From NCBI GenBank assembly GCA_965203465.1, contig CBDBCR010000001.1, positions 32,001-96,000 on the forward strand: DNA of 64,000 nucleotides, in the 5' to 3' direction. The notes under the pieces were generated by a model. That model saw only the letters and a program-made list of their open reading frames with translations, searched no databases and was not told where the DNA came from. Positions 24,751 through 35,239 of the stretch are shown in pieces. How positions within the stretch are numbered: position 1 is the first letter of the stretch; every line of letters begins with the position of its first letter. The DNA comes from Nitrosopumilaceae archaeon. Lineage in GTDB: Archaea > Thermoproteota > Nitrososphaeria > Nitrososphaerales > Nitrosopumilaceae. The position numbers and the translations under genes are program-made.

Positions 24751-24789
24751 GCCCCGCGCCGCGGGGGGGCGGTTAATACCCCTAACGGT

Positions 24790-25461
24790 TCAGTGCCGCT
24801 TGGGCAGGAACGGCACTATGGCCCGCACGAACTCCATGAGGTTCTTGGTCTGCAGGTACACCTTGCCGGGGCCGGTGATCTCCAGCGTGAGGGCCTCGCC
24901 GCCGAACAGCGTGGTCTTGAAGCCGCCGTGCTTTGCCACGCGGTACGAGGCGGTGGAGCTGAGCGCGACGAGCTGGTAGTTGTCCAAGACCATCTTTTGG
25001 CCCGCCCGCAGCTCCTTTTGGAGGATGCCGCCCCAGGCGTTGACGAACATGGTCCCCGAGCCGACCGTCTTTAGCATGAAGAGGTTGTTGCCGAATATCC
25101 CCTTGGTAAAGCCCTGCCACTTGGTGTCCAGGGTCAGGCCGGTCGTGGAGCAGACGAACGCGCCCGACTGGACTATGAACTCTTCGGAGACCTCGAGCGC
25201 CTCGATGTCGCCTAGCATGTTGCCGGTCAGGCCCAGCAGGCACCCGTCCTCGCGGGCGGTGAACTCGTTGACGAAGAACGACTCGCCGCCCAGGGCCGCC
25301 GCCTTCAGGGACTTTAGGAAGCCGCCCTTTCGCATGCGCGTCTCGGTGCCAATGTCGCCCTGCATGAAGACCATGGCCGCGGCCTCGGCGGTCACGCCCT
25401 CGCCCCTGTCCAGCTCGAATTCCACGAGGCCCGTCGGGTTCTTTACTATCCGGTGCTTCAC
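24790..25461 (-). CDS. TIGR00266 / AIM24 family protein
   Basis: AEAAAMVFM, GGESFFVNEF, NAWGGI, LFGGEAL..TGPGKVYLQT; GTG start at 25461. Confidence 0.9.
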   Translation of the reverse strand: MKHRIVKNPTGLVEFELDRGEGVTAEAAAMVFMQGDIGTETRMRKGGFLKSLKAAALGGESFFVNEFTAREDGCLLGLTGNMLGDIEALEVSEEFIVQSGAFVCSTTGLTLDTKWQGFTKGIFGNNLFMLKTVGSGTMFVNAWGGILQKELRAGQKMVLDNYQLVALSSTASYRVAKHGGFKTTLFGGEALTLEITGPGKVYLQTKNLMEFVRAIVPFLPKRH

Positions 25462-25537
25462 GGCGCGGGGGCGGGGGGCGGCGTAATAAGTTGCGCGGTG
25501 CGGCAGGATCAAATATGCCGGGCGCGGGGGGCGGGGC

Positions 25538-25969
25538 GTGAACACGGTGAAGGAGCTGCGCGACGAGCTGGCGAGGGCAAAGGGCGAGCTGGCCAAGGAG
25601 GCGCGCCGCCGTGCCGAGGCCGAAGAGCACATTGCCGAGATGGCCTGCCGCGCGGAAAATCAGGACGAAATAAACAACATACGGAAGGAAATGATATCCA
25701 GCATGGAAAAAAAGTTGTCCATACAAGAAAAACTCATAGACCTGCAGAAAGATCAGATAGGCGAGCATGCAAAGGCGGCGTCCATACGAAATGCCCTCAT
25801 AGCAAACCTGGATCGCGAAGCGGAAGAGAAGAATGCCAGAATGGCCGATCTCGAACGCCGCCTCGCAAAATACGAGGCCGATCCGCCAAGCGAACAGGGC
25901 GAGGGCGCAGAAAAAGCCAGGGCGGCTGAGCTTGCGCGAAACCGTAAAAGCGTCGAACGGTCAAGCTAG
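25538..25969 (+). CDS. Hypothetical coiled-coil protein
   Basis: 143-aa E/K/R-rich heptad ORF; AAATAT box upstream. Confidence 0.6.
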   Translation: MNTVKELRDELARAKGELAKEARRRAEAEEHIAEMACRAENQDEINNIRKEMISSMEKKLSIQEKLIDLQKDQIGEHAKAASIRNALIANLDREAEEKNARMADLERRLAKYEADPPSEQGEGAEKARAAELARNRKSVERSS

Positions 25970-28900
25970 GCTCGCGGTTTCAGCCCTTTGGCCGGCTCTA
26001 ACCCGTCCATGACAAACATGGCGCCTACCAGCACGAGCTGCGAGTCTGCCTTTACGGGCGCCGCCTTGTCCACGGCTCGATCCGCCAAGTATATCCTGTC
26101 TGCAAGCTGCCGGATCTCCCTGCACATGCGCGCCGGATCCTCCTCGTATTCGCGCAAGATGTCCTTGACGGTGACCGTCCACGGCCCCATCTCGTGTGAC
26201 GAGAGTATCTGGTACGCCTCGTCTGCGTCCTCCTGCGGCAGCCTACCACCGGCTACGGCCTCTACCAGCACGTTCAAGTCGAGGTCGCTTTGGGATTTCT
26301 TTTTAAGATCGAGCACCTTTTTCTTGCCCGCCTCGTTCATGTCACGTATGGCCCCGTGCGCCTCTGCGTCTATTCGCAACAGCTCCTCGAACGATTCGCG
26401 GTGCTCCTCGCCGTCCATGGGCAGATACAGATCCGTCCCCTTGGCGCACGAGATCAGCCCGATTGCCTCCGAGTCGTTCTCGGGCACCTCGGCCCGACCC
26501 TTGGCATAGTCGTACACGACAAAGTGCACCCTGCGGGTCTGACCGTCCTCCTGTAGGTATGCGAGCACCGCCTTTCGACCCTCGCCTTTTTTGCCGCTGC
26601 GCCTGCCCATGGGCACGTCGCCCATGGCCTCGAAGCCTATCTCCTTTACGTGCCGCATGATCTCGTTGATCGGCGTAGACTGCGGCATCAGGTCAGATTC
26701 CGATTCCAAGCGCGCTATCGTCGCGTCCGAATCGCCCTTTTGGCCTGCAAGGGTTCTGATGGTGGGGGCCAAGTTTCCGTTGAAATCTTTTGGGCAGGGC
26801 ATCTTGTCCAAGATCTCGATGTCGGTGCCGACCACGTTGGCTGCCGTGTCCACTTTGGCCAGCAGCTTGCCCACCAGCTTCAACAGGGCATCCAGCTGCT
26901 TGTCCGGATAGCATGCCCGCGAGCGTATCGTCTTGTGGGCGCTGGTAAGCCTGTCTATCCTGCCGGTGCGCTGCACTATCCTCATGGGGTTCCACGGAAG
27001 GTCGTAGTTTACCACATAGTTGCAGTCCTGCAAGTTCTGCCCCTCGGAGAGCACCTCGGTAGATACGAGTATGTCCGCTTCCTTGTCATGCAGATCTTCG
27101 TCCTCAGGCAGGTTGGCCATGGGCGAAAACTGTATGATGTACTTTTGTCTGACTTGCTGTTTGGTGTTGCCGTGTATGAGCAGCACCTCCTTGTCCGGAA
27201 ACGCCTCGCGCATCTTTTCGCGTAAGTGCTTGGCGGTGACCGTGTATTCGGTAAAGACTAGCACCTTGCAACCCTCTTTTTGCAGGGCCCCGTCTGAAAC
27301 GATGGCATCGCGCACGGCCTCGAATTTTTTGTCGATGGTGACCTTTTCAAGCTCTTGGAGCAGGTTGCGCAGTATCTGCAGATCCGACCGCATGTCGGAG
27401 AGCATCGAGCGCTTGTCGTAGCCGGATCCGAGTTTTTCGGTGGCCATCTCTCTGACCATCTGCGCTAGATCTTCTTCCGAATCTTGGCCGTCGATCTCGT
27501 CGTTGCTACACCTTGCAATGGCCTTGTTAAAGTCCCGCACGCGCAGTATTCTGTTCTGTTCGAGCATCTGCTCCACATGCTCGTACATGCGTATCTTGTT
27601 GCCTATGCTTATTCGCACCGCCTCGGTGCTAGACTCGAACCTCTTTAGCAACAGCAGCACTTGTAGGTGGGCCAGCGTCCTGTGCGCCTCGCGCTCCTCC
27701 TTGGGCAGATCCGTGTTGTATCTCTCCAGACCGTACGGGGCCATGGTGAGCGACTTTATGTCTTCGAATAGCCTGCCGAAGATGTCACCGAAGAGCTCCG
27801 CAAGATCGTACCTTATCGGCCTGTACTCGTGCGTCGGAAAGCTTATCAGCTTGCCGGCTATCTTGTCGTCCTTGTACACATCGCGTATGAACGACCGGGT
27901 CCGCCTGATCATAACAGAGTCGAGCAGCTGCTGTATCTTTTCTAGGCCCTGGCTTAGATCTTTGTTGGTCGCATCGCGCATGTGCTTGTACAGATCCACG
28001 ATGCCCACAGTCTCCCAAAAATAGTCGTCTTTGCCCTTTGTGATTATGGACAGCTGATAGTACAGATCCATGAGCGAGTTGTTGATGGGGGTGGCCGTGA
28101 GCAGCAATACCTGCTTGGGCTTGCCGATTGACAGCATCTTCATCAGGTTGAGACGCCTCTGCGCGTTCTTTGAGCGGAAGTTCTGCGACTCGTCTATTAT
28201 CACAAAGTCGATGTTGCGATATTTCCGCAGCTCGTCCAAAAAGCCCTCCCGGCCCATGGACTCCATGCTAGCTGTCTGCCTCACCGTAATGCCCATCTCT
28301 TGGAGCTTTGCGCCCCACATGCTGTCTAGCACCTGCGCGGGGGCCACCAGCATGGCCTTTCTGCCCTCGTAGAATATCTTTTGTCGTATTATCTCAATGC
28401 CCATGTTGGTCTTGCCCAAGCCCGTCGAGTCGGCGATTATGGCCCCGCCATAGCTGCCTATCAGGTGCAGCGCCGTGTCGACCGCGTCCTGTTGAAAGGC
28501 GGTCAGCGACGCGCCCCGCCGGTACGGCCGATCTGACCTCCTTAGGAACTGCTTGAACTTTTCAAACAGCATCTTCATGTAGACATCGTGCGGCTCTGCC
28601 GGCGCACCGAATTTCGACTGCTTTAGCACGCGCATCAGGTCCTCTTTCGCGTCAGACGCGTCGGCCCACATGCGGTCGAACCACTTGCGGGTCTGGGTGG
28701 TCACGCTAGGCTGGTACAGGCCGGCGTTGAGCTCGTAGTTGCCCGCAAGCCCGGCGCCGGTCAGGTTGCTGGAGCCGATAAAGACCGAATTGTCCCCCAG
28801 TATGTAGCATTTGGAGTGGTTGAACCTGCTCTGGCCGAGCCGCACCTCTATGTTGGGCCTTTCCAACAGCCGTATGAGGCTCGCCGCGTCCCCGTACGAG

Positions 28901-29208
28901 CTCGGCTCCAGATCCTGCACATCCAGCTGGGCCTTTACCGAGCGCGGCTCGTCGAACCTGCTTGCCAGTTCTTCGAACGTCTCTTCTGAAGGTAGCATGG
29001 CGCCCTTGCCCATGAGCAGGCGCATTTTGAACGAGCCGTCCTCGGCCGCCTTTTCGATGTTTTCGCGCAAGAGGCCGTACCCGGCCACGTCGAAATACCC
29101 TGTGGACACATCAAACTGTTTCGCGTGCGGGATCTCCGAATTGAGCACATCCCGCATGGTGACATCCGACGAGTTGTCGATGATGTCGCGCTTGATGCGT
29201 TCGGTCAT
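25966..29208 (-). CDS. PLD-nuclease / SNF2-type SF2 helicase fusion
   Basis: STGYFD, HSKCYI..IGSSNLT (PLD); IIADSTGLGKT, IIDESQNFRS, LLTATPINN, KRFESS, VFTEY, STEVLSEGQNLQD, NYDLPWNPMRIVQRTGRIDR. Confidence 0.93.
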   Translation of the reverse strand: MTERIKRDIIDNSSDVTMRDVLNSEIPHAKQFDVSTGYFDVAGYGLLRENIEKAAEDGSFKMRLLMGKGAMLPSEETFEELASRFDEPRSVKAQLDVQDLEPSSYGDAASLIRLLERPNIEVRLGQSRFNHSKCYILGDNSVFIGSSNLTGAGLAGNYELNAGLYQPSVTTQTRKWFDRMWADASDAKEDLMRVLKQSKFGAPAEPHDVYMKMLFEKFKQFLRRSDRPYRRGASLTAFQQDAVDTALHLIGSYGGAIIADSTGLGKTNMGIEIIRQKIFYEGRKAMLVAPAQVLDSMWGAKLQEMGITVRQTASMESMGREGFLDELRKYRNIDFVIIDESQNFRSKNAQRRLNLMKMLSIGKPKQVLLLTATPINNSLMDLYYQLSIITKGKDDYFWETVGIVDLYKHMRDATNKDLSQGLEKIQQLLDSVMIRRTRSFIRDVYKDDKIAGKLISFPTHEYRPIRYDLAELFGDIFGRLFEDIKSLTMAPYGLERYNTDLPKEEREAHRTLAHLQVLLLLKRFESSTEAVRISIGNKIRMYEHVEQMLEQNRILRVRDFNKAIARCSNDEIDGQDSEEDLAQMVREMATEKLGSGYDKRSMLSDMRSDLQILRNLLQELEKVTIDKKFEAVRDAIVSDGALQKEGCKVLVFTEYTVTAKHLREKMREAFPDKEVLLIHGNTKQQVRQKYIIQFSPMANLPEDEDLHDKEADILVSTEVLSEGQNLQDCNYVVNYDLPWNPMRIVQRTGRIDRLTSAHKTIRSRACYPDKQLDALLKLVGKLLAKVDTAANVVGTDIEILDKMPCPKDFNGNLAPTIRTLAGQKGDSDATIARLESESDLMPQSTPINEIMRHVKEIGFEAMGDVPMGRRSGKKGEGRKAVLAYLQEDGQTRRVHFVVYDYAKGRAEVPENDSEAIGLISCAKGTDLYLPMDGEEHRESFEELLRIDAEAHGAIRDMNEAGKKKVLDLKKKSQSDLDLNVLVEAVAGGRLPQEDADEAYQILSSHEMGPWTVTVKDILREYEEDPARMCREIRQLADRIYLADRAVDKAAPVKADSQLVLVGAMFVMDGLEPAKGLKPRA

Positions 29209-32200
29209 TTGCCGATCTCCTCGAAGAACGGCATCGCCGCTTTGCGCACCTCGCCGTAGAACCGTTTGAGCGTCCTGTTGTCTGACCAGTCGGCAGTCTC
29301 TGCGTCGCGTAGCGAGGGATCCTCGTCAAACTTGAACGAGTCCAGCACGGTCTGGTATTCGTCTTTGGAGAGGCCGTAGGCGTGCGCTACGAGCGCGTCC
29401 AGCCGAGCGGTGGCGTCTATGCGGGTTGCGGGAGACAGCGGTTCTGGTTTGAGGCCGAACGAGTCGCCAAACGATTCAAAAGACCTCCCCCCCCCCCCCC
29501 CCGGCTGGCAACGCCAGAGTCAAAACGGCCGCCATGGTTGTTATTTCTTGGTCATGTTTTGAGGGGTTTGGGGCGAACAGGTGCTTGAATATAGTAGATG
29601 CGTCCATTTGGATTTTTGCCCGTGCAATAAAATCAAACGTCATGGAGTTGAGCACTCCTGTCAAGTACGCAAGTTTGTGGTGGTATAGGTCGCCAAACGC
29701 TACTTGGTGGTTCCGAGTCAATATGATGCTACGTAATGCGGTTGTGTGAAATGTGTGCGGCGGTATAATCGATGAGAGCATAGTTCTCATGTCAGTGGAA
29801 CGGGCTATGTTACGAAATACTATCATAAACGATTCATGGAAATCACTACAATGCCCTATATATAGTTTTTTCTTTTCTAGCCTATTCAAGCCGGCAGATT
29901 TGTTTGCGGTAAAATCAGGAGTTCTAAAAGCGGAATTGAACTGGTGCATGTCCTTCCCTTTCATTACGGGCCAATCTTTACCATCTTCCTTGAACAGATC
30001 AGAATCATTGGAGGCGTCGAAACAACGGGAAATTGATATTTGCCATCCATCACTTGAAACTGATCCAAATGTTGGACATTCTGACAGTTTTGTAAGTAGT
30101 GCGTATGCTTTTGTAGAAACTTCCGGTATGGCCAAATCTATGGGTGAAATTTTGTTTATAGAATTTTTAGAGCAGATCGTAAATTTGTTGTTTTCGGTAG
30201 ATTTGTCTTTTAGAGAAGATAGGTCGTGTAGATAGAACGCCGCGGGAAATTGATCTGATCCAGATCGATTTCGTACAGTAAGTAATGCAAATCTGTAGCT
30301 TGAGTGAATGTCAAATATTTTTTTCTTGTTTTCAAACACATACACCTGCATAACATCCATATCAAGTAGTCGCCTGCGCATATCTACAGATCCCGCGTTT
30401 GAAAGAATTTGGGATGGCAATAACACAGAGATTATTCCGTCGTCTGAAACTAGATTTAGCATGCGCTCCAACACTAGTTGCCATAAATCTTTGTCACCGG
30501 GGCCCTGTAGTTCGTAAGTCTTGTAAAAGTAGGCTTTGTCTTTAAACGACTCGATATACGCTTCATGCGATCTGTGTAGGTTAGAATCTTGGAGTAGCTC
30601 TTTGACTCTCTTTTGTTTTTTGGTATTAGGTGTCAAATAATTAAAATTGTGATCATGTGGCGTAAAAAATTCGTCAATTGACGGCTTTGATTTTTCCCAC
30701 GGAGGGTTACCCACCACAAGATCAAATCCATGCCGTGAATCAGTGAAAGCATCCATCATCTCCAGCTCCCAATGGAAAAATGAATGTTGTTCTGCCAGTT
30801 TTACTATCCGCTGTTTGGCTACGACGATCGCCTCATCTGTTGAAGGTCTGGTCAGTCTAGAGATGAACTCTATTTTTCCCTTTTTCGGAAAAACGGATGG
30901 ATCTATACGCGAAGCGGTCAGCGCATCCAATGCCTCTTGATGTATTCTAACTTGTTCCTTGTATTCTGTGTATTCCGTGCGGCTCGCACGGGCCTGTTTT
31001 ATTGTAACATCAGGACTGTAGCTTACTCGAGCTAGAGTGCTACCGTGTTCTGTAGGATCTGGCAACCACTCGTCAAGCGAGTGGGTTTGTGGATCTCTCA
31101 TACAAACCATCCATTCGCCAATAGTTGAATCTCCCTGTTTGATATGGTGATCTAGATAGGTCAACGGCACCCCAATTGCGAACGAGTCTAGCCAGAGAGA
31201 CAACCGCGCTAGGTCTACTGCGAGGGGGTTTAGATCCACGCCGAATATACACCGCTTCATGACTCTACGTTTGAGTAACACATCAGCGGTCAACAGGTTT
31301 TCGTCGATCGTGATATTCTTGTCTGCTTGCGCACGTACGACAGCCTGTCTGTCTGCTTCGATCTCTGCCACAAGTGGATGATCGGGGTGCGAGTTGAGCA
31401 TCTCGGTGGCCCATTGCGTTATCTGGTTCAGCGCTTCGACCAAAAAGTGGCCCGAGCCCATCGCCGGATCGAGCACCTGTAGATCGAGTAGCCGGTCTAT
31501 GCAGGCAAAGTAGTTTTTGTTGGACGGATCAGCTTTGTGTTTTTCAATGTCGCCGGCGACCAAGCGTCGGCGCTTTGCGAGTAGCGGTTCCAAGCCCCGC
31601 CTGACCAAGAAAGAGACTATTTCTGTCGGCGTATAAAAGCTGGCCGACATCTTACGCGAGGCGATTCCTCTGCCGGATACCAGATACAAGTCGTTTTTCT
31701 TGTACGAGTAGGTCGATTCTTCCTTTGATTCTACTTCTCGCACGCCATTCTCGTCCTCTAACAACATAATGTCCCTATCAGCTTGTCTTATGTCGAATTC
31801 CAATAGCGCCTCGTATATGTTGCCCAAGTGCCGGACGCCCAAGTCCCCATAGTCTACCGGCAACCCGTCTGTCTCCGACAGCGACCGCAGCGCCCGCGCC
31901 ATGAACCGGTTGCGTACGCGGCCCGCATCGAGCCGCTTCTGAAACAGGTCGCCGGCGTACTGCGGCAGGTTGTGCTCCGGGCTGCCGTCCCTAATGCCGT
32001 CAAACAGGGCCGACAGGTTGCTCCAGCAGCTGTCGCCGTCCGGGTCTTGCTCGTAGCCGTCCAGTTTGGCGCGCATCGACTGGAGGGAGAGCTTGCCGTA
32101 GCGCGGATCCGAGACGGGCAGTAGGTTGCGCGACTCTGCATACAGGATAAACCACGTGCGATACAGGACCGTGAGCGCGTCTTCTTTTGCTTTTGCGAGA

Positions 32201-33219
32201 TCTGCCATGTCGAATTTTGTCTTCATGTCGTGATCCAGCATCCCTTTCGCGATGTCCAGGAACAGCCCGTCGGTGGCCAGTATCTTGGAGCGCAGGTCTT
32301 CCTCCAGCGACTGGGCCTTTGTGCGGGACTGTTCAAGAATCTCTTTGATCTGCAGGGGCTTGCCTCTGTACGTGTCGGCGCCGAAGAACACTGCCAGGCA
32401 CTTTAGCGTCTCCAGATCCCCGTCTCCCACGTAGACTGCCAAGTAGTTGGTCGTGGACGCGGAGACGTGTCTGGTGTACAGCCTCCACTCCTCGCCGTTG
32501 GTCAGCACCACCCAGTCGGCGTGCTTCAGCTCGGCCACGGCCGTATAACTCGGCGCCACGTCGCTCCTCGTCCTCACGCTTAGGTCGCCGGCCGGTGCCA
32601 CGATTACCGACGCATTCTCGAACCTGTATGTCTTGCCGTCTTTTTCCGCGCGTTCAAGGGACCACCCGAGCGCCTCCAGCACAGGCTCGGCACTGTTCCC
32701 GAGTGCGCGCCGCGCCGCCTCCGCTTCCGGCTTCACGTCGCGCCTTAGATCATCCCACAGCCTGTTCTTCAGGTAATGGTTCGAAAAGATGCCCCGGTTG
32801 TCCCAGCACGTGCTGTCTTGTGTCTGGAGTTTGTCGATAGCCTTGCTGAGGCCCACCCTATACCCGATCTCCGTCGCGGCCGAAATGTTGCACGACTCGA
32901 GTGTCTTTTTGATGCGCCTGCACTCGGCCTCGCGATCTGCCAGCACCGAGCAGCTCTTGTTGGCGGCCCTGACGAGCAGCATCTCTTTGGGCGCAAACAG
33001 CACCACGCATTGGTCGGTCTTTACCTCTTTTTTGAGCTCGGCGAGGCTCTTGGGTCCTGCGGCCACCAAGATGACCGGCACGGGCGGGTCGGCGCCGTCC
33101 GTCCTCTGGATGCTGTAGCATTCCCACCCGCGCCCAAACTCCAGCCTCTGCCGCTGTTTCGGATCAACGTCGAACAGAGGCAGCAGGCTTTCTACGCAAG
33201 ACGCGGTTTGCCCAGACAT
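29205..33219 (-). CDS. Type IIG/Eco57I-like N6-adenine DNA methyltransferase, frameshifted at a G16 tract about 94 codons before the true C-terminus
   Basis: LGNIYE, SFYTP, VLDPAMGSGHFL, GVDLNP, FHWELE..FDLVVGNPPW; after the tract another frame gives RLDALVAHAYGLSKDEYQTVLDSF...EEIGK* with an ATGA overlap onto the helicase; ATG 33219 lies downstream of TTAATTAT. Confidence 0.9.
29487..29502 (-). repeat. G16 homopolymer (C16 on the plus strand) inside the methyltransferase gene
   Basis: Sixteen consecutive C at 29487-29502, by far the longest homopolymer seen in the window. Confidence 0.95.
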
Positions 33220-33391
33220 CGGGCGGGCCCGACACGTGCCATAATTAAGAGTAGGTTCGGCGCCTGCACGGGCAGACCTCTTGTATCGAAATTTGGTCTG
33301 CCTAAGCCGCGGATCTCCTATAACATCCAATCATACCTTATAGATCTGACCGCGAGGAAAGGCATTAATTCCACACGTTCCGATCGGCTGC

Positions 33392-35239
33392 ATGGACAAG
33401 ACCGTCGACATCACCCCCGACAAGAGCCTCGTCAGCAAGCTGGGCCGCACGGGGTACCGCACCGAGCAGGCCGTCGCGGAACTGATAGACAACGCCATAG
33501 ACGCGCGGCTGGACGGCAAGACTAGCATCGAGGTGACGCTGAACTTTAGGATGGGCCGGATCACCGTCTCGGACGACGGGCGCGGGATGGGTGCCAAGGC
33601 CCTGGCAGACGCGTTCACCATCGCAAGAGAGACGGGCGGAACGGGCCTGGGGCGGTTCGGCATGGGGATGAAGAGCGCCTGCTCGAGCCTCGGCAAGGCG
33701 TTCACGGTGACCACCACGGAGGCCGGCTCGGGCGCAGAGCTGACCGCAGAATACGACGAGGATGAGTGGCTGAGAGACGACTCGCGCGGATGGGAGAGCT
33801 TTGCAATCGCCGAGAACGCGGCGGACAGGAAAAGCCACGGCACGACCGTGGCAGTCAGCAACCTCAGGGTCCCGCTGTACCCAAACCAGGCGCCCAACTT
33901 TCGGAGCAGGTTCGGCGTGCGCTACGGCCCCTACATGGAGGGCGGGCAGGTCGAGATCACGGTCAACGGGCGCGCGTGCAAGCCCGCGAGGCAGGATCTC
34001 CGCGAGGGCACTCGGCGCGAGATCGCCGCAGAGCTGCCCGGCGGCAGAAAGATCGGCGGCTGGGTGGGCGCGCTGGACAAGAGATCCGCAAAGGGCGACG
34101 ACGGGATACACCTCTACTGGAACGGCAGGCTGATCAAGTCCCACGCAAAGTTCGGCGTACGGGACCACCCCGAAGTGGCGGGAATAGTGGGCGCGCTGTC
34201 CCTGGATCACGTGCCGGTGAACTTCCACAAGACCGGGTTCATAGAAGAGTCCCCGCTGTACGCCGAGGCAGAAGAGTGGTTCAGAAAGAGCCCCGCGCTG
34301 GCGGACGCCCTCAGGGCCTGTGCGCGCAAAAGCGGCAAGCCGGACGCGCGGGACGCCTTTGCCGGACCCAAGGCGCTGGAGGCTAGAATGGGCATGGGCA
34401 GGGCCGAATCCTTTCTGCGCGGCGCAAAGGGGTTCGCGGCGGAGAAGGGCGGCTTCAAGATGGACGTGAGTTTCGGAGACGGCGGCGGGGGCATATACGA
34501 GACAGAAAAGGCGCCCGGCGGGGCGCGGATAAGGATAGAGAGGGACAGCCCGGCGTTCAGGGCGTTCCGCAACCCCCTGCTCCTGCTCGGCTGGATAGGC
34601 ATAGAGGCGGAGCTGCTGGCCTCGGGCCCGCGCGACGCGGAGGCGTTCGTGCGCGAGCGCAACAGGCGGTGGGCCGAGTTTGCAAAAGAGTCGCTTCCGC
34701 GCGAGGCGGCGGCGGAGCGGCCGCGCAAAATCCGACCGCGCGCCCCCGGCTATTCGCTCGCAGACGATCTCGTGGGGCTGCACGACGAGCTTGTGGAGGA
34801 CTTTAGGCACCGGTTCCAGTTCACCGCGGCAAGCACGCTCTCGCCCTTTATGCGGATCTCGCACGCCAAGGCCGTGTACACGCTCCATGTCGCCAGGGGG
34901 ACCGGAGACCAGATGGCAGAGGCCATAGGCGGCGAGTTCGTCGCCCTGCTCAACCCAGCGAGCGCCGAGGTGTACACGGCACTGGATCTGGGGCACGACA
35001 GGATCGTCGTGGTGAGGGAGCGCTCCGAGAGGATGCCCGAGACGTGGGCGCCGCCCGAAAAGGCGTGGCTGGATCTGTACCGCGAATCCACAAAGGGCAA
35101 TCTGACCATGTACGCAGACGAGCTGGACTGGGTGCTCGAGGATCTGGTCGACAAGGGCCTTGCCAGCACGGCCAGAATCAAGTCCCTCGCGAGGCGGTAC
35201 GGGATGGCTCGCGACATAGAGGCGTTTCTGGAGGAGTAG
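33392..35239 (+). CDS. MORC-like GHKL ATPase with an uncharacterised (AbiEi-like) C-terminal region
   Basis: ELIDNAIDA, SDDGRGM, GRFGMGMKSA, HGTTV Bergerat-fold motifs; S5-like GIHLYWNGRLI..VNFHKTGF; C-terminal PPEKAWLDLY. Confidence 0.85.
   Translation: MDKTVDITPDKSLVSKLGRTGYRTEQAVAELIDNAIDARLDGKTSIEVTLNFRMGRITVSDDGRGMGAKALADAFTIARETGGTGLGRFGMGMKSACSSLGKAFTVTTTEAGSGAELTAEYDEDEWLRDDSRGWESFAIAENAADRKSHGTTVAVSNLRVPLYPNQAPNFRSRFGVRYGPYMEGGQVEITVNGRACKPARQDLREGTRREIAAELPGGRKIGGWVGALDKRSAKGDDGIHLYWNGRLIKSHAKFGVRDHPEVAGIVGALSLDHVPVNFHKTGFIEESPLYAEAEEWFRKSPALADALRACARKSGKPDARDAFAGPKALEARMGMGRAESFLRGAKGFAAEKGGFKMDVSFGDGGGGIYETEKAPGGARIRIERDSPAFRAFRNPLLLLGWIGIEAELLASGPRDAEAFVRERNRRWAEFAKESLPREAAAERPRKIRPRAPGYSLADDLVGLHDELVEDFRHRFQFTAASTLSPFMRISHAKAVYTLHVARGTGDQMAEAIGGEFVALLNPASAEVYTALDLGHDRIVVVRERSERMPETWAPPEKAWLDLYRESTKGNLTMYADELDWVLEDLVDKGLASTARIKSLARRYGMARDIEAFLEE

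Follow-up and report, generated by a model that had tools for sequence, protein, structure and literature searches.

We propose that a run of 16 G residues within an archaeal gene for a Type IIG-like N6-adenine DNA methylase acts as a contingency switch operated by slipped-strand mispairing, a reading to which we assign a probability of roughly 0.7. The gene lies in a stretch of 64,000 nucleotides from a Nitrosopumilaceae archaeon (GenBank assembly GCA_965203465.1, contig CBDBCR010000001.1, positions 32,001 to 96,000), which we call the window and whose own numbering is used below; positions elsewhere in the genome carry a contig prefix. The tract, the two open reading frames (ORFs) that it separates and the junction with the helicase gene that follows are these:

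29487 to 29502, minus strand: poly-G tract of 16 G, found as G13 in public contigs of near-identical DNA; in frame at any length that is a multiple of three (3n).
29476 to 33219, minus strand: Type IIG-like N6-adenine DNA methylase ORF in its assembled, out-of-frame form (P0004), 1247 aa from an ATG at 33219, which is the form held in the database.
29205 to 29486, minus strand: distal frame of 93 codons plus TGA, for conserved C-terminal helices of the target-recognition domain (TRD), read only if the tract is 3n.
29205 to 29208, minus strand: ATGA overlap of the in-frame methylase stop (TGA 29207-29205) with the helicase start (ATG 29208-29206).

The longest methylase ORF begins at a TTG at 33330 (minus strand) and, as assembled, terminates three codons past the tract at a TGA at 29476-29478, with the tail ...ALPAGGGGGEVF and the closing residues GGGGGEVF. 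The loss of one G, or any other 3n length, would lead instead into the distal frame, RSFESFGDSFGLKPEPLSPATRIDATARLDALVAHAYGL...FFEEIGK, which has no internal stops; lengths of 3n+1 and 3n+2 give a stop 3 and 23 codons downstream of the run, respectively. A preliminary description of this DNA, made from its letters, had placed the 16 G on the minus strand at the end of the ORF, had drawn a stop-free 3n frame through to EEIGK and had noted that its stop overlaps the helicase ATG, and on all of these points we see what it saw. The tract sits at 93% of the methylase gene, inside the TRD, and the remainder of the ORF is without homopolymer frameshifts.

Reading is open on both sides of the tract, over 1276 stop-free codons upstream and 93 distal ones. 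In comparison with an in-genome paralogue, the ratio of non-synonymous to synonymous substitution rates (dN/dS) is 0.154 over 91 distal codons (dS 0.85) and 0.094 over 398 codons upstream of the tract. The distal frame is thus under purifying selection and is translated on an evolutionary time scale, though both copies are out of frame in this assembly. Separately, we observed that the paralogue dS is lower in the distal 91 codons (0.85; C1:361759-362058 compared) than upstream (1.97), which could reflect gene conversion or overlapping helicase-start signals.

Three paralogous pairs of a methylase gene and a PLD-SNF2 helicase gene are carried by this genome. The paralogue used above (L012, C1:358052-361756, 64% identity) has a G9 run (C1:361748-361756) at the same site and is likewise out of frame, needing a 3n+1 length; the third copy, on C3, is intact and lacks a tract. 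Among the 15 closest database homologues (P0004-P0018, the window protein included) every one has a glycine run at the tract site, and only one is read in frame. Adding the in-genome paralogue gives a set of 16 genes in three orthologue groups, with 60-68% identity between groups. Group 1 consists of the window gene and five others (82-88% identity), all six out of frame; group 2 consists of the paralogue and five others (78-89% identity), again all six out of frame; and group 3 has four members, of which one (P0016) is in frame, the sole such case in the 16. Because groups 1 and 2 each contain both wrong frames, tract length has changed many times. Tract lengths in the closest orthologues are known from protein tails only, not from DNA: two scans of metagenome contigs (with alignment A1 and with P0013) gave no relative that would provide it, and a scan of genome contigs with alignment A1 gave mostly distant bacterial homologues, none closer than 50%.

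Homologues at about 60% identity or less are without the run and read straight through into a C-terminus that is 54-75% identical to the distal frame. Among homologues, other repeats break the gene at other sites: poly-C at an ‘APPPS’ site in eight proteins and in locus L032 (a run of 15 C); poly-C at a ‘PPPERI’ site in P0088, P0100 and L038 (a run of 12 C); a (CT)n repeat in L036 and P0087; and an A run in P0031. All of these breaks fall within the last ~130 codons. Of 34 related loci with both flanks matched, six are frame-broken between the flanks, five of them at a repeat. In one relative (G036), the matched part of the methylase homologue is preceded, at a distance of about 40 nt, by runs of G23 and C36 (C6:17258-17327, L003). 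The preliminary description had said that the distal piece looks conserved, and had looked to orthologues for the tract and for the fused C-terminus; both the dN/dS and the 58-75% identity to C-termini of full-length homologues bear the former out, and the latter are found as the run in the 15 closest proteins and the read-through into a homologous C-terminus in distant ones.

What the out-of-frame protein would lack can be judged from its domains:

32320 to 32742, minus strand: PD-(D/E)XK-like (restriction-nuclease-like) N-terminal domain, residues ~160-300, with D212, E230 and K232; VIA Z 5.4-6.7, a moderate match.
30670 to 31572, minus strand: methyltransferase catalytic region, with the S-adenosylmethionine (SAM) motif DPAMGSGH and NPPW.
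29208 to 30162, minus strand: TRD of the M.BseCI / CamA / BrxX / MmeI type, with the tract in a loop before the last five helices.

The methylase ORF matches the Pfam families Eco57I (2.9e-19) and MmeI_Mtase (8.3e-8), and also N6_Mtase; its top PADLOC match is REase_MTase_IIG (1.6e-93), and this match ends at profile position 1167 of 1250, leaving some 80 profile positions absent from the assembled form. Thus the gamma-class N6-adenine methyltransferase domain by which Type IIG enzymes are recognised is found by Pfam, by motifs and by PADLOC. The DrmMI models of PADLOC also match (E 9e-64), and its PglX models weakly (E ~1e-7). Taken by itself, the 93-aa distal piece is assigned to no family by Pfam or by PADLOC. 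It was placed by modelling the C-terminal 319 residues of P0126, a homologue with an unbroken gene, on a 50-sequence alignment (predicted local distance difference test, pLDDT, 89.8; predicted template modelling score, pTM, 0.90). This model resembles the TRDs of M.BseCI and CamA (E ~2e-6, ~295-306 aligned columns) and also matches BrxX/PglX, MmeI, M.TaqI and Type I S subunits, so that a C-terminal TRD in the same chain, a second mark of Type IIG enzymes, is found on it as well. By sequence, phmmer searches with P0016 and with a 27-sequence profile gave no match to a solved structure. The tract site on the model is the loop between helices 201-213 and 218-228, and the out-of-frame product would be without five helices (218-318). 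This agrees with the earlier suggestion of a C-terminal helix of IIG-type methylases, since the distal piece corresponds to the last five TRD helices in the P0126-based model; the archaeal and IIG-like labels given there also hold.

For the N-terminal 340 residues, modelled with a pLDDT of 84.9, Foldseek gave nothing at E <=0.001. The top four VIA-align matches of residues ~160-300, at the middling Z scores given above, are all nuclease domains (those of an HsdR fragment, DrdV, BpuSI and EcoR124I HsdR), and among 45 homologues D212 is conserved in 43, E230 in 38 and K232 in 28. The methylase therefore looks like a Type IIG enzyme, with a nuclease-like domain, a methylase and a recognition domain in one chain, of which the nuclease part is putative. 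Because the out-of-frame product is missing five helices of the modelled TRD, that form would be expected to lose DNA recognition, and hence methylation and any restriction. As an observation on the same protein, its group-1 orthologues are 94-98% identical to it over the first 340 residues (32200-33219, minus strand) and just 82-88% overall, which suggests that the central and recognition parts change faster, as with specificity diversification.

Ten public sequencing runs contain part of the locus as Logan contigs, and four were compared over 28500-30500 (2001 bp). Two of these (X7 and X8) are runs of one sample, possibly the source of the assembly; each has one contig that spans the region, identical to the window except for three bases missing at 29487, which gives G13. 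G16 and G13 are both 3n+1, that is, the same wrong frame. Tract length therefore varies from one reconstruction of near-identical DNA to another. The contig of a third run (X9) stops exactly at the tract; its depth is about 2 and it is thus uninformative.

The tract is one of many. In this genome (2.26 Mb in four contigs, 65% GC) there are 52 G/C runs of at least 9 nt and eight A/T runs of at least 9 nt. Counts of G/C runs drop 4-fold per base up to 7 nt and later rise again to a second peak at 11-16 nt, the commonest lengths being 12-15 nt. Against an expectation extrapolated from the decay of runs of 3-7 nt, runs of at least 11 nt number 45 where 0.9 are expected; at 11-16 nt the excess is over 50-fold, and the shorter ones fall below expectation (20 against 48 at 8 nt; 3 against 12 at 9 nt). 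Because of this excess and the bimodal lengths, the tract is not due to chance, and the deficit at 8-9 nt combined with the excess at 11-16 nt is a sign of selection, not composition. Of 61 related genomes, 16 contain an eleven-G pattern, all four genus mates among them, and the other 45 do not.

The genes beside these tracts were sampled by a Pfam scan of 40 of 47 tract-flanking ORF pieces, with only the poly-G reading sense tried. Families were assigned to 16 of the 40, all of them read in that sole orientation, and none to 24. N6_N4 DNA methylase accounts for five pieces at four tracts; the others are FG-GAP giants (three), beta-helix/PKD proteins (four, up to giant size), DndB, ParB_N, Big_5 and EPTP (one each). 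A G12 run at C3:314273-314284 breaks an N6_N4 DNA methylase gene, leaving the halves of the Pfam domain in different frames (L152 and L153). Several tracts are located a few codons 3′ of an ATG. A further class begins 3-12 nt past a TATA-like hexamer, which is so for 12 of the 52 tracts and for 0.7% of random positions (p ~2e-15); most of these precede ORFs of >500 to >2000 codons, and they may be promoter-type switches between TATA box and start. They and two families of repeated sequence, each with poly-G at the same internal position in its copies, are listed here; the repeat families, which are a side observation, may represent RNA genes or mobile elements of small size.

C1:505630, C2:85243, C2:92781, C2:113230, C3:193317, C3:277247: TATA-proximal tracts.
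C3:442058, C3:507089, C3:519272, C3:609216, C4:2644, C4:5436: TATA-proximal tracts, continued.
C1:313680, C1:689437, C1:812532, C3:87241: four-copy repeat family with poly-G.
C1:584527, C1:903000, C3:85262: three-copy repeat family with poly-G.

The tracts are also biased in strand: on C1, 20 of 21 read G on the plus strand (the window tract is the exception), and on C3, 23 of 24 read C; replichores, which might account for this, could not be made out clearly from GC skew. A crude genome-wide test for a ‘frameshift signature’ was dropped because it had no discriminating power: positives made up 6.6% at random positions, 13% among 7-8-nt runs and 5.8% among those of at least 9 nt, and the known G9 break went undetected. 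In bacteria, phase-variable repertoires are reported to be dominated by defence/methylase genes and surface proteins (PMC11868660). In the report of sponge Thaumarchaeota, GC content is 32-34% in free-living members of the group and 47-67% in seven of 11 sponge-associated ones (PMC7848895). From its 65% GC, set against the 32-34% of free-living relatives, a host-associated lifestyle of our archaeon, in a sponge or another host, is likely. Public runs with the label ‘sponge metagenome’ contain small shares (0.09-0.21) and are given no weight in this.

We suggest that the switch would work as follows. Slipped-strand mispairing in replication would alter the length of the G run. At a 3n length an enzyme of ~1340 aa with a complete TRD would be made (ON); at 3n+1, as in the assembly and the public contigs, or at 3n+2, an early stop would remove the last five TRD helices, and the truncated product would no longer recognise its DNA target, either for methylation or for restriction (OFF). 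The adaptive role may be bet-hedging against viruses. If the system is costly, OFF would mostly be favoured and ON selected only under viral attack, a possible account of why 15 of the 16 genes are OFF. Of the features by which contingency loci are known, these are found here: a repeat in an ORF that shifts the frame, an excess of such repeats over composition, frames that differ among relatives, and both flanks kept. The assertion of the preliminary description, of a hypermutable locus whose tract length determines the frame of the methylase, gains support from the G9 paralogue, from the dN/dS of the distal frame, from the runs of 15 out of 15 homologues with both wrong frames among them, from the G13 contigs and from the genome-wide repertoire; slippage as the cause of the length changes is what we infer from these.

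Several points count against the switch. Unbiased switching would leave about one third of genes ON, and 15 of 16 OFF departs from this (binomial p ~0.014, a rough figure as the sequences are not independent); this departure points either to a strong advantage of OFF or to expression of the ‘OFF’ alleles by another route. The difference between G16 and G13 could in part be an error of the assembler or of sequencing and cannot separate true heterogeneity from homopolymer error, and contigs cannot reveal minority alleles. The loss of function expected of the truncated protein is drawn from fold comparison only. That switch sites seem to cluster toward the 3′ end is partly a matter of ascertainment, because the protein search was limited to proteins of 706-2247 aa and scored residues 850-1284, so that breaks at the 5′ end would escape it.

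The other route of expression just mentioned leads to an account in which the usual genotype would be out of frame, and slippage of RNA polymerase and/or the ribosome on the G run would give a steady low dose of a costly full-length enzyme. That 15 of 16 tract genes are out of frame, and yet the distal frame shows purifying selection, would be expected from it; five consecutive GGG codons permit perfect re-pairing of the P-site tRNA, and polymerase slippage at long homopolymers is known to rescue frame-broken genes (PMC5009743, PMC1088944). We nevertheless find it unlikely as the explanation of the locus: the window gene needs a shift of +1, the paralogue -1 and the orthologues both, so that there is no single programmed direction, though simple leakiness remains compatible with this; and the breaks at (CT)n and other sites fit slippage at the level of DNA better than slippage in expression. 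Expression slippage and a DNA switch may coexist.

The same predominance of out-of-frame alleles could be taken to mean that the methylase is being lost, the G runs being mutational hotspots of a high-GC genome and the frameshift a dead end, and in one related genome (G011) the methylase homologue is indeed in four pieces. Such decay is, we think, quite improbable in view of the open frames on both sides of the tract with dN/dS values of 0.09-0.15, the retention of the tract site in three orthologue groups as far apart as 60-68% identity, and a run-length distribution in which 8-9-nt runs are depleted while those of 11-16 nt are enriched. Nor do we give much credence to an assembly artefact, in which the true tract would be in frame and stable (for example G15) and the break a consensus error. 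Long homopolymers are error-prone on all platforms, and the two reconstructions do differ; but both are 3n+1 and neither is 3n, the G9 of the paralogue is short enough for reliable calling and is also out of frame, 14 independent database homologues, taken from other assemblies, lose the frame at this very site, and homopolymer frameshifts are absent from the rest of the ORF. A contingency switch in the methylase gene is the reading that we prefer.

A broader proposal may be built on this, which we regard as about evenly poised between right and wrong. It is that this archaeon and several related Nitrosopumilaceae would run a ‘phasome’ in the style of bacterial pathogens, with ~50 poly-G loci controlling restriction-modification (R-M) methylases, DndB and giant surface proteins, and with an archaeal-promoter class placed 3-12 nt past the TATA box. 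The methylase switch would have evolved repeatedly in the last ~130 codons, where a break would disable the TRD, so that methylation and restriction are lost together, and would uncouple the helicase-nuclease. Phase variation by simple sequence repeats (SSRs) would then be a major adaptive strategy in a lineage that is probably host-associated.

The genes on either side of the methylase are as follows:

25966 to 29208, minus strand: fusion of PLD (HKD nuclease-like) and SNF2 helicase, 1080 aa, with PLDc_2, SNF2-related and Helicase_C domains.
33392 to 35239, plus strand: GHKL-type ATPase gene (HATPase_c_3, weak PADLOC MzaB match), divergent from the methylase.

The PLD-SNF2 ORF matches the PADLOC candidate model ‘HKD+Snf2’ and its DrmD models (E 8e-36). 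In all 34 related loci with a locatable methylase C-terminus, a PLD-SNF2 homologue lies 3′ of the methylase on the same strand with a gap of 0-54 nt; an ATGA overlap is frequent among them and is present in all three copies of the pair in our genome. Methylase and PLD-SNF2 genes thus form a conserved two-gene module. Coupling of helicase translation to the methylase frame, which the overlap might allow, is a candidate only: independent initiation is possible because a Shine-Dalgarno-like GAGGAG is found 8 nt upstream of the helicase ATG. The GHKL ATPase gene may belong to the same defence island. No match to the DISARM core genes drmA and drmB (DUF1998) was obtained among neighbouring ORFs of at least 200 aa (13 scanned with Pfam and 3 with PADLOC), nor, in the same ORFs with the same two resources, to the BREX/Pgl partners PglZ, PglW, PglY and BrxC. 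A 328-aa ORF directly 3′ of the helicase gene (24782-25768, minus strand) has no Pfam or PADLOC family.

Among host-adapted bacteria, phase variation driven by repeats is textbook knowledge. The preliminary description had thought it barely documented in archaea, and our literature search, which covered articles without their supplementary files, likewise turned up no archaeal gene for which it has been described. In a 2025 review of phase variation archaea are mentioned once, as a subject for future surveys (PMC11868660), and a 2010 survey of homopolymers across 18 archaeal genomes did not detect a placement of poly-G or poly-C toward the 5′ ends of genes (PMC2831843). Within the article text of the sponge Thaumarchaeota paper the terms ‘homopolymer’, ‘frameshift’ and ‘phase varia’ do not occur (PMC7848895). 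The comparative evidence supports the view that we may be looking at a known bacterial mechanism in a new domain of life, and one with a genome-wide repertoire: the defence methylase of an ammonia-oxidising archaeon shows the full comparative signature of a phase switch, and some 50 further tracts stand in classes of gene that phase-vary in bacteria. If this is true, the Archaea too would hedge their bets stochastically against viruses and hosts; the locus would be a natural system for how archaeal replication and repair treat long G runs; and the frameshifted ‘pseudogenes’ of high-GC archaeal symbiont genomes would need to be read again as switches.

Four known systems resemble this locus in part. 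With class 1 DISARM (SNF2 protein DrmD, methylase DrmMI, DrmA, DrmB and the PLD protein DrmC) it shares matches to the DrmMI and DrmD models and the PLD domain; it differs in having no DrmA or DrmB among the neighbouring ORFs scanned, in the fusion of PLD and SNF2 into one protein, and in better PADLOC matches, to REase_MTase_IIG and ‘HKD+Snf2’. The Type III mod phasevarions of Haemophilus, Neisseria and Helicobacter are similar in that a helicase-nuclease gene lies directly downstream of the methylase; there, repeats drive ON/OFF expression of a methylase paired with the Res helicase-nuclease (PMC3711429), whereas the methylase family and the domain order of the window gene are different. The pglX gene of Streptomyces coelicolor (Pgl, BREX type 2) is, like ours, a defence methylase gene with a G tract in a high-GC genome, and its tract phase-varies at 10^-2 to 10^-4 per generation (PMC4365076); the TRD model of our methylase family also resembles BrxX/PglX structures. 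In contrast to pglX, the partner here is PLD-SNF2, with no PglZ, PglW or PglY match among the neighbouring ORFs scanned, and the PADLOC PglX match is weak.

The fourth is Cj0031 of Campylobacter jejuni NCTC11168 (CjeFIII-type), a 1243-aa protein whose gene of 3732 nt carries G9 at nt 2573; 12-29 poly-G/C tracts are present in that genome (PMC4889913). Cj0031 has been demonstrated to switch ON and OFF and has a demonstrated methylation motif, whereas switching of our methylase is proposed from comparison of sequences. The host here is archaeal, the tract is G16 or G13 rather than G9 and is placed at 93% of the gene, in the TRD, rather than at ~69%; the window gene is always followed by a PLD-SNF2 gene, and its genome has ~50 tracts, most often 12-15 nt long. 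Yet in both, a single large Eco57I/Type IIG polypeptide is encoded by a gene that an internal poly-G run splits into two frames, and the size and, with the putative nuclease domain, the order of domains of the window methylase are those of Cj0031.

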